A DNA stretch of 32,201 nt from positions 1 through 32,201 of the forward strand of contig CAYODN010000001.1 in NCBI GenBank assembly GCA_964402735.1, given 5' to 3'. Within the stretch, counting starts at the first letter, position 1, and the number at the start of each line of letters is the position of its first letter. Positions 1,293 through 14,546 of the stretch are shown piece after piece. The notes below the pieces were generated by a model. That model had not been told where the DNA came from. It saw only the letters and a list, made by a program, of their open reading frames with translations, and ran no database searches. The translations under genes were made by a program, and so were the position numbers. Origin of the DNA: an uncultured Candidatus Peribacteria bacterium (lineage in GTDB: Bacteria; Patescibacteriota; Gracilibacteria; UBA1369; LOWO2-01-FULL-3).

Positions 1293-3497
1293 TTGCAAAA
1301 AAAGTCTTTTTCGACAAATCTTGAAAAAACTATCAGAATTCTTGTAAAGGTTCCTCAATCAAATGAACAAAAAGAAGACTCGATGAGTGCTTTTTTAAGT
1401 CTCATAAATAGGATGATTCCTGAAAAAGAACCAATCGGACTCGAAATTTTGGCTCACGATTCGTTTATGCGATTTATTATAGCTTTTCCGGAAAAGCTTC
1501 GAAACATTGTGGAATCAAACCTCTATGCACGTTTTCCAAATATAGAAATCTCAGAAATCGACGAAGGGTTTCCCTTCAAGACTTTAAAATTTGCGGTTTT
1601 GGAAATGAAATTTCATAAAAACGAATTCTTTCCTCTGGCCACTCATAAATCATTAAAAGAAAATTTCCTGAGAAATTTTGCGGCTTCCGTCGGCGATGTT
1701 TCAGATCCCGAAAAAATTCTTTTTCAAATAGTCGTAAAAAAACTTTCGAAAAAAACCTCATTTAGAAAATTAAAAATTCTTTATCTTAAGCTTTTAAAAA
1801 ATAAGTCTGAAAAACACCAAAAATATTACGAAAAAACTTCCGAGCCCCTTTTTATCGGGAAAATTCGTTTGATATGTTTTTCCGATACACATGAAAACGC
1901 CGTAAAAAAACTTAAAGCGACCCTCAAAATTTTCAAAGCCCTGGATTCAAGTGTTAATAAGCTTGAAAAAGATCGAATATCAATTTCTCCGCTTATCAAA
2001 TCAAAGGTCATAAATGCGAAAATTTCCAAAGGCCAACTTTTAAATTCCGATGAAATTGCGACAATGTATCATTTCCCTTATGTCGGAAGTTTGGTTGTAA
2101 ACGCGGTAAGCACCTCTTCAAAGCGTGCGCCCGCTCCCGATATTTTGCCTGTCGAAGGCGCATCACCTGCAAAAGATATTTCAATTTTCGGGGAGACTAC
2201 TTATCGAAACGAAGGAAAGCGCTTCGGGATCAAAAGAATCGATCGTAGAAGGCATCTGTATGTCGTTGGAAAAACCGGAAGCGGAAAAAGTAAACTTCTC
2301 GAATTATTGCTTATTTCAGATATTCAAAACGGTCATGGCTGTTGTCTTATAGATCCGCACGGTGACTTGGCGGAGGAATTGCTGAATTATGTACCGAAAG
2401 AACGCATAAACGATGTCGTTTACATAAATCCGTCCGACAAAGATTATCCGATAGCCTTTAATCCGCTTGAGCCGCTTATGGATTACGAAAAACGCCAGCA
2501 TTTATGTACTTTTTTCATCGCGATTTTTCGAAAATTATTTTCTGTAAACTGGAATCCGAGGCTTGAACACATTATTCGTTTTATTGTTCTCGCCCTACTC
2601 GAAACGCCTGATTCAAACATATTGGGTATTTCCCGCATTCTTTCGGACACTACCTTTAGACAGCGGGTAATAAAACACATAAAAGACCCGATTGTGAAAA
2701 GTTTTTGGACAAGTGAGTTTGCGGGATACAACGATAAGTTCGCTAATGATGCAATCGTGCCTCTGATAAATAAAGTCGGTCAGTTTATCGCAAACCCGAT
2801 TTTACGAAACATGATCGGTCAGCAAAAAAACGCACTCAATTTCGCAAAATTTATGGATGAAGGAAAAATCGTTTTGATCAATGTTTCAAAGGGAAAACTC
2901 GGAGAAGAAAACGCGGCACTTCTCGGATCCATGTTTATCACGAAAATTCAGGAAGCGGCGCTTTCGAGGGCCGGCATCAAGGAGGAACTTCGCCGTGATT
3001 TTTATTTCTATGTTGATGAGTTTCAGAATTTCGCCACGGACGCGTTTTCGAGTATTTTATCGGAAGCGCGAAAATATCACTTGAATTTGACCATAGCCCA
3101 TCAATATATAGCACAGCTTCCGGAAGATGTGAAAGCCACGGCTTTTGGAAACGTGGGCTCAATGATCGTCTTTCCCGTGGGTGGCGATGATGCGGCTTAT
3201 TTGCATAAAGAATTCGCACCCGTATTTACGGCGGAAGATATTATTAATCTTGATGTTCGGGATATGTACATAAAAATGTCGATAGACGGAAGACTTACAC
3301 CGCCTTTTTCAGCCAAAACCATCACGGTACCTTCCGCCACTCATAATTTTTCGCAGGAAATCAAAACGCATTCACGTCTTACATACGGTAAAAATCGCGT
3401 CTCTGTCGAAAACGAAATCGCAAAATGGACATCTTCTCAAACGGATTTTTCAGAGCAAATTTCAAAAAATTCCGGTTTCCCCGAGCCCTTGGTTTAG
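1293..3497 (+). CDS. Type IV secretion coupling-protein-like (VirD4/TraD/TrwB family) P-loop ATPase
   Basis: 734-aa ORF. Walker A is VVGKTGSGKSKLLELLLISD followed by CCLIDPHGDL. Walker B is FYFYVDEFQNFAT. LTIAHQYIAQL resembles the TraD/TraG C-terminal motif. The start is uncertain: TTG at 1293 or ATG at 1383. Confidence 0.75.
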   Translation: MQKKSFSTNLEKTIRILVKVPQSNEQKEDSMSAFLSLINRMIPEKEPIGLEILAHDSFMRFIIAFPEKLRNIVESNLYARFPNIEISEIDEGFPFKTLKFAVLEMKFHKNEFFPLATHKSLKENFLRNFAASVGDVSDPEKILFQIVVKKLSKKTSFRKLKILYLKLLKNKSEKHQKYYEKTSEPLFIGKIRLICFSDTHENAVKKLKATLKIFKALDSSVNKLEKDRISISPLIKSKVINAKISKGQLLNSDEIATMYHFPYVGSLVVNAVSTSSKRAPAPDILPVEGASPAKDISIFGETTYRNEGKRFGIKRIDRRRHLYVVGKTGSGKSKLLELLLISDIQNGHGCCLIDPHGDLAEELLNYVPKERINDVVYINPSDKDYPIAFNPLEPLMDYEKRQHLCTFFIAIFRKLFSVNWNPRLEHIIRFIVLALLETPDSNILGISRILSDTTFRQRVIKHIKDPIVKSFWTSEFAGYNDKFANDAIVPLINKVGQFIANPILRNMIGQQKNALNFAKFMDEGKIVLINVSKGKLGEENAALLGSMFITKIQEAALSRAGIKEELRRDFYFYVDEFQNFATDAFSSILSEARKYHLNLTIAHQYIAQLPEDVKATAFGNVGSMIVFPVGGDDAAYLHKEFAPVFTAEDIINLDVRDMYIKMSIDGRLTPPFSAKTITVPSATHNFSQEIKTHSRLTYGKNRVSVENEIAKWTSSQTDFSEQISKNSGFPEPLV

Positions 3498-4414
3498 ACC
3501 TTAATATCAGCCCACCCCGGATTTTTCAGCCTTAAATCTTTTAAAATTTCCGCACTTATTCGAGCATAGCTTTCGGGATCAAGTTGCCTGTTTAAAATGC
3601 AAAATTCTTTGTGAGAAATATTTACACAAAAAAGACAATTTTTTAAATCCGAGCAATTAAAAAGATACGAACAATCCGTACAATGCCCCGAATAAATGGC
3701 GTGATCCGAATTATACATAGACACGCAATCGACACATTCATAGCAAAGATTATTACCATGACTTTGTGTTAAATCAGCGCAATTATCATTTTTATTGCTG
3801 TCAAAAGCGTAAAAAGTATCCGAATTTAAAGACGAATCAAACATCAAATATGAATTTTTATTGTGATACATATAATTCCCATAAACCGTATTATCATTGA
3901 ATGCCTCATTTGTTTGGGTCCACGGAAAAAGTTTTTTAAATTCATCAAAATATGCAAACACGGAGGCACGCGAAAGATTTTTATATTTTTTGATCTGTTC
4001 TCTGTATTCATTTTCGGAAAGTTGCCTGTTAAAAATGCAAAAAGATTTGTTTTTCAAATTAACGCATCCGAACACATCATGACAATCGGTACACGCAAAA
4101 CACACTGAAGAATCTCGCAAAGTCGCACAATTTTCCAAAAAACTCGAATTATAACATTTGTGAGAATCGGTACATTCATAACACAACTCGCACTCGACAC
4201 TATGAGACACATCCATGCAATTCGCGCACATATAAGAGGAAAACAGATATGTACTATCCGTGCAATTTGAGCAATCGAAAGAATCATACATATTCTTGGA
4301 GTGATAGAGCATATCGCCGAAATCACAGTCCTCGGTCATAAAATTATGAGTGGGAATCTTGGGAATTAAGCGAATGATTCTCTGAAATTCGGACAAAAAA
4401 GCCTCTGCGTTCAT
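3494..4414 (-). CDS. Cysteine-rich repeat protein, internally duplicated, function unknown
   Basis: 306 aa with about 40 Cys in short CxxC / CxDC / CxNC units. The two halves end in CVNLKNKSFCIFNRQLSENEY and CVNISHKEFCILNRQLDPESY. It is in the same frame as the upstream zinc-ribbon ORF, separated only by TAA-AAA-AAC. Confidence 0.7.
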   Translation of the reverse strand: MNAEAFLSEFQRIIRLIPKIPTHNFMTEDCDFGDMLYHSKNMYDSFDCSNCTDSTYLFSSYMCANCMDVSHSVECELCYECTDSHKCYNSSFLENCATLRDSSVCFACTDCHDVFGCVNLKNKSFCIFNRQLSENEYREQIKKYKNLSRASVFAYFDEFKKLFPWTQTNEAFNDNTVYGNYMYHNKNSYLMFDSSLNSDTFYAFDSNKNDNCADLTQSHGNNLCYECVDCVSMYNSDHAIYSGHCTDCSYLFNCSDLKNCLFCVNISHKEFCILNRQLDPESYARISAEILKDLRLKNPGWADIKV

Positions 4415-4420
4415 GTTTTT

Positions 4421-4735
4421 TTAATTAATTTCAGGAAGCGGATCTGAAATAATGGTATCGTTTTCTTCGAAATATTTCTGATAATCCTCTCGGCATAAAA
4501 TCATATTTTCCGTTTTCTCGGGATCATAGGAAACGACAATATCTTTGCCACATTTCCTGCACTTAGTCTTAAAAAGTTTCTGCTCAGATCCTCGAAGCTC
4601 AAGCCTTCGCTTTTGGCGACAATTTGGACAATTTTTCGGAAACGGGAGATTTTGCCCGCATAAAAACTCCTGCTCACGGTCTATTATCAGAAACGCCCTA
4701 CCACAACTTTCGCAATTTTGAGTGATATTACTCAT
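4421..4735 (-). CDS. Zinc-ribbon protein (zf-trcl-like, CxxC x3)
   Basis: 104 aa. The CESCGRAFLIIDREQEFLCGQNLPFPKNCPNCRQKRR pattern matches the probable zinc-ribbon family (CxxC..F.....EQ.F......P..C..CR..RR). A further CRKCGK motif follows. Confidence 0.7.
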   Translation of the reverse strand: MSNITQNCESCGRAFLIIDREQEFLCGQNLPFPKNCPNCRQKRRLELRGSEQKLFKTKCRKCGKDIVVSYDPEKTENMILCREDYQKYFEENDTIISDPLPEIN

Positions 4736-4871
4736 AAAAATATTGATTAACCATAAAAAGCATAATTTTTAATATTTATTAATCAATAGATTTTTCATAA
4801 GCATTTTGATAAAAAATTTAAGAAATTACACAAAAAGATTAAGTTAAAAATACAAATCGAAATAATTTAAA

Positions 4872-14132: not shown

Positions 14133-14546
14133 ATGAAAAAACTACTCACACTCGGGGTACTAGCACTTAGCGTCTTTACGCTATTTTCTTGCACGCAAAA
14201 AGAAGAACTAAAAGAACCCGATTATACTTTTGAAAGCTATAAAACGATGATTCCCGAAACCTGCAAATCTTTTTTCGATGGGTGCAATAATTGCTTTAGA
14301 ACTGAAGGCAGCGAGAGTGTCGGATGCACCAAAATGTTTTGCCAAAAATACGAGAAACCAAAATGCCTAGATTCCGAGAATAAGGACACATACACCTCAG
14401 AAAGCTGGAAAACGATGATCCCGCAGACTTGCAAATCCTTTTTCGACGGATGCAACAATTGCAGTAGAACAGAAAATGCCTCTGAAGCAGCCTGCACTTT
14501 GATGTATTGCGAACAGTACCAGAAACCAAATTGTTTGGATGAATAA
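14133..14546 (+). CDS. Secreted lipoprotein with two tandem 6-Cys domains
   Basis: The signal peptide MKKLLTLGVLALSVFTLFS|C has a lipobox-like LFSC. The mature part is two copies of (Y/W)KTMIP(E/Q)TCKSFFDGCNNCxRTExxxxxxCTxM(F/Y)C(Q/E)xYxKPxCLD. Confidence 0.75.
   Translation: MKKLLTLGVLALSVFTLFSCTQKEELKEPDYTFESYKTMIPETCKSFFDGCNNCFRTEGSESVGCTKMFCQKYEKPKCLDSENKDTYTSESWKTMIPQTCKSFFDGCNNCSRTENASEAACTLMYCEQYQKPNCLDE
14223..14540 (+). repeat. Intragenic tandem duplication, period 168 nt (56 aa)
   Basis: Copy 1 is 14223-14372 (YTFESYKTMIPETC...KCLD). Copy 2 is 14391-14540 (YTSESWKTMIPQTC...NCLD). All six Cys align, and nucleotide similarity is clearly visible. Confidence 0.85.

Follow-up and report, generated by a model that had tools for sequence, protein, structure and literature searches.

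In a stretch of 32,201 nucleotides from an uncultured Candidatus Peribacteria bacterium (contig CAYODN010000001.1), which we refer to as the window in the following, two adjacent open reading frames (ORFs) on the minus strand share one reading frame and are separated by a single TAA codon. The upstream one, ORF-A, encodes a double zinc finger protein, the downstream one, ORF-B, a Cys-rich protein. We find it very probable that each is a real gene in its own right, that the two form one small operon and encode a naturally split and probably translationally coupled two-subunit protein, and that their common frame is a coincidence. The closest relatives of the pair also keep the two genes apart, tightly spaced and with a start codon for the second, but differ in the relative frame.

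That ORF-A and ORF-B lie in one minus-strand frame with a single internal TAA had been noticed in an earlier reading made without database searches (the sequence-only reading), and we reproduce its coordinates and its frame. ORF-A closes with DPLPEIN and the TAA, followed by AAA and AAC and then by the ATG of ORF-B, with the frame unchanged throughout (Table 1). The length of this frame, however, had been given as 411 codons, while our recount yields 413 codons ahead of the terminal stop (104 + stop + 2 + 306).

A search of a large protein collection with the concatenated A and B sequences returned 301 matches, and we gathered 79 genomic loci, all from Patescibacteria-type metagenome-assembled genomes (MAGs), in which we mapped the A- and B-type coding regions. 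The closest relatives, with 37–55% identity to ORF-B, form a clade of loci from Daviesbacteria, Levybacteria, Blackburnbacteria and others (L001–L029); our junction counts take in the 28 of them whose upstream DNA is included. In each of the 28, a separate ORF for an A homolog lies directly upstream of B and ends in TAA, TAG or TGA, and B begins with an ATG that aligns to Met1 of ORF-B. The distance between the two genes is −4 in six loci, with stop and start overlapping as ATGA, −1 in two (TAATG), +1 in six, +2 in seven, +3 in six and +5 in one; together with the window, all 29 cases have a spacer of at most 6 nucleotides (−4 to +6). The frame of B relative to A is 0 in six loci, +1 in six and +2 in 16. 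As the outcome that would speak against an interrupted gene, the sequence-only reading had named homologs that are encoded separately and without a common spacing or frame, and this is what is found within the window's clade. The nearest relative of the window's pair, a Daviesbacteria locus (L001), has two genes that overlap as ATGA, and stand-alone B proteins of about 306 residues account for 116 of the best 120 among the 301 protein matches.

Some records of this clade deserve a remark of their own. In L026 (3001–3516), the B homolog is shortened to 171 residues by an early stop, and in L021 (3924–6260), a neighboring ATPase gene that we describe below is found in two ORFs of 109 and 653 residues; in contrast to the junction in the window, these breaks have the look of genuine disruptions or of errors in assembly. 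Moreover, many MAG records with the locus (L005, L007, L011, L013 and others) are titled 'uncultured Gammaproteobacteria', 'Lysobacterales' or 'Pseudomonadota'. They hold a locus of the type found in the Candidate Phyla Radiation (CPR), with the same gene order, and their taxonomic labels look unreliable.

The shared frame of the window's pair has to be seen against the background of the window itself, where 14 of the 36 neighboring ORF pairs on the same strand are in the same frame. At least six of these same-frame pairs have one stop between clearly unrelated genes, as seen for methyltransferase/PCC, NUDIX/nucleoside deoxyribosyltransferase, aldo-keto reductase/HIT and hydrolase/DUF6580/HIT, and the frame sharing of ORF-A and ORF-B is not above the chance expectation for the window. 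The sequence-only reading had seen a pattern in two in-frame TAA interruptions, the other one in a presumed HEPN gene; since same-frame adjacency is the base rate of the window, this pattern carries no weight, and none of the 40 window ORFs has a HEPN match in Pfam at E ≤ 0.001. The tightness of the A-B junction, by contrast, is conserved beyond the local background: same-strand spacers of 6 nucleotides or less make up only 8 of 36 in the window, where the median is 21 nucleotides. We also considered whether TAA might be reassigned in this organism. Most long frames end in TAA, which is the commonest stop (29 of the 43 long open frames in the window), and standard-code ORFs tile the window; therefore, there is no sign of such a reassignment, and we ruled it out. 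Likewise rejected was a further candidate interruption 5′ of the ATPase gene, a stretch of 77 open codons before a TAA at 1254–1256, in which no frame is homologous to ATPase N-termini.

The statement in the sequence-only reading that related proteins carry a zinc ribbon fused to Cys-rich repeats proves true of the wider family, which includes both A-B and A-B-A proteins. Among the best 120 matches, four are contiguous A-B proteins (P0002–P0005; 408–412 residues, 44–46% identity). Their alignment runs colinearly over the junction, with 0–5 linker residues, and the position of Met1 in stand-alone B is taken by L, T or S. Their surroundings are instructive. In L081, a split pair of A (102 residues) and B (306 residues) is immediately followed by a fused A-B paralog (P0004, 408 residues), and in L080, a fused A-B gene (P0003) is followed by an additional stand-alone A-type gene. 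In a neighbor-joining tree of the B parts, which is rough and without support values, the four fused proteins are dispersed, each of them next to a split locus. P0005, for instance, is placed beside L018, where A is a separate gene with a +1 spacer although its product shares 84% identity with the P0005 N-terminus. Because of these dispersed positions, the sequences suggest four independent fusions on a split background.

Further out, a profile search of 1.84 billion representatives brought up 3,208 clusters at 50% identity, 911 of them at E ≤ 1e-30. By local domain annotation, the best 150 family representatives comprise 55 proteins with B alone, 17 A-B, 71 A-B-A and 7 B-A, so that the fused A-B-A and A-B forms amount to 88 of the 150; with the four close proteins, the A-B proteins total 21. 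In Peregrinibacteria and Gracilibacteria (L031–L038), B has no A upstream, and in one of the Peregrinibacteria loci, L032, B comes first and a separate A-type gene directly after it. Fusion and fission are hence frequent in the A/B family. The loci L040–L079 (e.g. L041, L044, L046 and L056) hold two to four tandem fused A-B-A paralogs of 550–600 residues within 7 kb, and these tandem loci, from Parcubacteria, Peregrinibacteria and Saccharibacteria, also hold extra stand-alone A-type zinc finger genes.

For the junction in the window, the sequence-only reading had offered three mechanisms, of which the naturally split two-subunit protein agrees with our observations. The other two, a fresh nonsense mutation and programmed readthrough, do not: every one of the 28 close loci has the split, with a conserved start of B and a varying frame, and both therefore drop out as explanations. 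A fresh nonsense mutation in an ancestral gene of 410 residues, or a sequencing or assembly error, would leave ORF-B as a pseudogene tail, either dead or accidentally reinitiated. This appears extremely improbable, even if contiguous A-B homologs exist at 44–46% identity and the frame is intact over the stop, because the close loci are all split at the same point with a B ATG of their own, the nearest relative even with overlapping codons, and because fused homologs do not have Met at the B start. Moreover, ORF-A and ORF-B each retain every family-invariant residue, and B occurs on its own in 116 of the 120 database proteins that come closest. Nor does any observation call for a sequencing error at precisely 4421–4423. 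Programmed readthrough or recoding of the TAA would yield A alone together with a set fraction of an A-B fusion, besides or instead of initiation at the ATG, and the in-frame layout of the window and of six of the 28 relatives would fit it. Nevertheless, we consider it highly improbable: 22 of the 28 relatives are out of frame, six of them as ATGA overlaps, and the in-frame cases do not exceed the one-third expected by chance. In addition, the scans found no recoding signal or structure and the window holds no suppressor tRNA, nor indeed any tRNA gene, while TAA is the commonest genuine stop (29 of 43) and same-frame neighbors are at base rate. Finally, B has its own ATG in all 28 loci and in the window, and 116 proteins are stand-alone B. 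The A1 protein of phage Q-beta is an example of programmed stop-codon readthrough; A/B resembles it only in the one in-frame stop between coding segments and differs in that the frame is not conserved, the downstream ATG is, and no recoding signal is seen.

It is also conceivable that A and B are mere neighbors, which have independent functions and an inherited gene order and form no complex. The lack of an upstream A in L031–L038 would be in line with this, but one of these loci, L032, still has its A-type gene directly after B. Furthermore, the repeated and apparently independent fusion of the two speaks for a common function, A and B remain constant next to varying upstream genes, and a fused homolog yields a confident single-body model with a predicted template modeling score (pTM) of 0.87. 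We therefore regard mere neighborhood as very unlikely. Against a naturally split, coupled protein, in turn, weigh several points. The 6-nucleotide in-frame spacer of the window is the longest in the clade and unique; the linker that readthrough would produce (IN-x-KN) is only slightly longer than those of natural fusions, so that small amounts of a fused isoform would probably do no harm. No near-identical strain was found in which the base calls at 4421–4423 could be checked: the exact DNA pattern over the junction, with NNN at the stop, had no match in metagenome contigs, and look-ups of the exact ORF-A and ORF-B proteins led to no other contig. Model confidence is low in the first half of the B solenoid, with a predicted local distance difference test (pLDDT) score of 45–58. 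Lastly, coupling and complex formation are steps that we infer from the spacing, the fusions and the model of P0003.

On balance, we favor two genes whose products belong together. A and B would correspond to the two parts of what is a single chain in many other Patescibacteria, A a double zinc finger module and B a two-domain, Cys-laddered β-helix-like module, and the split state would be ancestral and under selection in the window's lineage, the Microgenomates-type CPR bacteria. A stops just past its DPLPE tail and B begins a few bases further on at its own ATG, a layout that would favor coupled translation, be it by reinitiation or by immediate independent initiation on an A-rich leader free of Shine-Dalgarno motifs, and would provide roughly equal amounts of both chains. 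The gene layout points to selection for such coupling, because the spacer is at most 6 nucleotides in 29 of 29 cases, compared to 8 of 36 in the background of the window. The two chains would then probably assemble into the architecture of the fused forms, an assumption that we make because fusions are recurrent and the model of the fused form is a confident single body. The shared frame would be an accident of the 6-nucleotide spacer, with small indels shifting the junction over the clade.

The start region of ORF-B, AAAAAAACATG, has an A-rich leader without a Shine-Dalgarno motif and is typical of the gene starts in the window (e.g. 4872, 5638, 12026), where leaders are A/T-rich and GGAG-type Shine-Dalgarno motifs occur at only 2 of 40 ORF starts. 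Translation initiation in this organism thus seems to proceed largely without Shine-Dalgarno pairing. In the textbook example of translationally coupled cistrons, Escherichia coli trpB-trpA, stop and start overlap. A and B resemble such coupled cistrons and Rosetta-stone pairs in that both genes are read in one direction and the stop of the first overlaps the start of the second or lies within a few bases of it, and, like Rosetta-stone pairs, they have orthologs fused into one chain in other lineages. They differ from enterobacterial coupling in the lack of Shine-Dalgarno motifs in the window's genome, so that the presumed coupling may work by a different mechanism. Regarding transcription, promoter-like matches in the region upstream of ORF-A (4736–4871) are at consensus level but not above those in shuffled sequence, and no terminator-like site is found between ORF-A and ORF-B or after ORF-B.

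Table 1. Features of the ORF-A/ORF-B locus in the window
Feature	Position	Strand	Remarks
ORF-A, first cistron, 104-residue double zinc finger protein	4421..4735	−	ORF calling, Pfam and 23 relatives
ORF-A architecture			CxxC..CxxC treble-clef finger, then second finger, then ND.II.DPLPE tail
TAA that ends ORF-A and forms the 'internal stop'	4421..4423	−	Stop at the matching place in 28/28 close loci
AAAAAC spacer between the cistrons, 6 nucleotides	4415..4420	−	Longest of the clade
ATG start codon of ORF-B	4412..4414	−	Met1 alignment with stand-alone homologs
ORF-B, second cistron, 306-residue Cys-rich protein	3494..4414	−	Homolog and model evidence
ORF-B architecture			Two β-helix-like repeat domains, each with a terminal (F/Y)CI(F/L)NRQ, then helices
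VirD4/TraD-like P-loop ATPase (type IV coupling protein-like), 734 residues	1293..3497	+	Pfam; convergent to ORF-B
Tail-to-tail stop overlap, 4 nucleotides	3494..3497		ORF-B TAA (−) / ATPase TAG (+)
Divergent intergenic region, 136 nucleotides	4736..4871		5′ of ORF-A; presumed promoter site for the A-B transcript

On the protein level, ORF-A had been labeled a zinc ribbon, which is borne out by weak matches to two Pfam families and by clear matches in its relatives. It matches zf_Tbcl (PF13451, formerly zf-trcl) with 22.2 bits, below the gathering cut-off of 24 bits, and zf_Tbcl_2 (PF23477) with 19.5 bits, in the right order. Its homologs at 47–59% identity, the A-type proteins (A′) of L032 and L080, exceed the zf_Tbcl cut-off with 32.6 and 30.1 bits, and fused homologs have precomputed PF13451 annotations. 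By this transitive homology, we class ORF-A as a divergent zf_Tbcl relative. A sequence-profile search of the PDB with ORF-A gave nothing significant, and a literature search turned up no papers on any of PF13451, zf-trcl, zf_Tbcl, DUF8128 and PF26449.

ORF-A is 47–66% identical to 23 relatives. In these 24 sequences, the invariant Cys residues are C8, C11, C36 and C39 in the first finger, so that both CxxC pairs of the zf_Tbcl zinc site are present in ORF-A, and C59, C62 and C81 in the second. The C-terminal tail, ND.II.(D/E)PLPE, is conserved as well, with a nearly invariant PLP, and lies 0–2 residues before the stop in most loci. The second finger (residues 59–84) reads CxxC...C(K/R)(E/K)D in the close clade and CxxC...CxxC in L025 and L032; judging from these sequences, its fourth ligand in the clade may be Asp or lost. 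ORF-A shares the CxxC...CxxC pattern of zf_Tbcl and zf_Tbcl_2, which is also covered by the NCBIfam family TIGR04272 (CxxC-x17-CxxC domain), whereas the second finger of the clade departs from it with CxxC...C..D; the Pfam families themselves have no known function.

ORF-B, labeled a Cys-rich repeat protein in the sequence-only reading, indeed has 25 Cys residues and a repetitive sequence, and it matches no family in Pfam, including Hexapep and its relatives, or in NCBIfam. It is internally duplicated into two repeat domains, each closing with (F/Y)CI(F/L)NRQ...EY and helices. All of its Cys residues lie in a single register of three, which in either half spans more than 100 residues (28–130 and 173–275). 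Autocorrelation peaks at 3, 6, 9 and 18 residues, small inward-facing residues recur periodically, and most Cys positions are exchanged with Ser in relatives. Because of this register and the Cys/Ser exchange, the sequences suggest a stacking ladder of Cys and Ser inside a β-helix rather than discrete metal sites.

Structure prediction with AlphaFold was poor for ORF-B alone (34 sequences, pLDDT 63.8), and the resulting model had no fold match in the PDB; a profile search for sequence relatives of ORF-B in the PDB found none. For the fused protein P0003, an alignment of 127 sequences yielded a model with a pLDDT of 84.9 and the pTM given above, in which the local pLDDT exceeds 90 all along the A domain, across the linker and in the first B helix, and weakness is confined to residues 121–200. 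The model indicates that A packs rigidly on B in the fused form. Foldseek searches with it returned weak local matches only (TM 0.1–0.17, E-values of 1e-4 to 1e-2). Those of the B part are to LpxD, GlmU, γ-carbonic anhydrase and a phage protein labeled 'Hexapeptide repeat', and those of the A part to phage zinc-ribbon proteins. On these models, we read B as a β-helix-like solenoid that resembles the hexapeptide fold, rather than as a demonstrated member of it. The strict periodicity of 3, 6, 9 and 18 residues in the small inward-facing residues of ORF-B is reminiscent of the left-handed β-helix hexapeptide proteins (LpxA, LpxD, GlmU, γ-carbonic anhydrase). ORF-B differs from them in having Cys or Ser at the repeat positions where these proteins have Leu, Ile or Val, and in having two solenoids, each capped by CIFNRQ; no acyltransferase residues were identified in it.

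Next to the pair lies the gene of a 734-residue P-loop ATPase, which matches the Pfam families DUF87 (31.9 bits, cut-off 23.2), TrwB_AAD_bind (25.4, cut-off 20.5) and TraG-D_C (22.6, cut-off 22). This ATPase occurs in 40 of 80 loci and is the sole conserved neighbor of A/B; upstream of A, by contrast, gene content differs even inside the close clade. It adjoins B in 29 close loci, and the window and 17 of these loci have a tail-to-tail stop overlap of 4 nucleotides. In Peregrinibacteria and Gracilibacteria, it precedes B and is read in the same direction, and in four of seven loci the gap is 1–11 nucleotides. In the A-B-A clade, it is found within 3 kb in a few loci only. The linkage has thus survived rearrangement, since the genes are convergent in Microgenomates-type loci and co-directional in Peregrinibacteria and Gracilibacteria.

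The domains of the window ATPase are those of VirD4/TraD type IV coupling proteins (T4CPs). In contrast to these, it has no N-terminal anchor and no neighbors from a type IV secretion system (T4SS): Pfam scans of the window ORFs found no virB4, relaxase or other T4SS gene, and its constant partner A/B is no known T4SS component. Specifically, its N-terminal part (1293–1430) is without the hydrophobic segment of about 45 residues that most close homologs have (L001, L007, L010, L023, L027), and such a segment is not encoded upstream in any frame. The ATPases of L004, L011, L013, L017 and L018 are similarly short. As for a role in defense, the PADLOC models do not match ORF-A or ORF-B and give the ATPase only generic HerA/mad8 P-loop similarity. 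In Patescibacteria, 5,713 VirD4-like T4CPs have been counted, of which only 148 lie near virB4, and a possible exaptation has been raised (PMC12102498).

Judging from the gene neighborhood, the ATPase is probably a functional partner of the A/B pair. It is possible, and we put this forward tentatively, that A/B or its fused forms are the dedicated partner of orphan VirD4-like ATPases, in a CPR-specific module of three genes whose function is not conjugation. In such a module, A/B could act as an adaptor, a regulator or in substrate recognition, and B would represent an undescribed Cys-laddered β-helix fold family.

Elsewhere in the window, two observations stand apart from this locus. The first 1000 nucleotides (1–1000) have a G+C content of 0.446, compared to 0.29–0.42 in the rest of the window, and contain overlapping ORFs on both strands without a Pfam match. 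Further downstream, a 137-residue ORF (14133–14546) matches the Pacifastin protease-inhibitor domain with 30.8 bits (cut-off 27.9). This is an arthropod family, odd for a bacterium, and the match may be a simple match of the Cys pattern.

For annotation, these results mean that ORF-A and ORF-B should be kept as two genes, without merging them, flagging a pseudogene or marking a recoding site, and that in compact CPR genomes, same-frame neighbors should not be taken for interrupted genes. The conserved linkage to the ATPase offers a lead on the role of the thousands of T4CP homologs in Patescibacteria that are not near virB4 (PMC12102498). The B family is large and unannotated: it comprises about 3,200 clusters at 50% identity and has no Pfam or NCBIfam model. 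Its repeated fusion and fission with A constitutes Rosetta-stone evidence that the double zinc finger protein and the Cys-rich β-helix-like family work as a unit.

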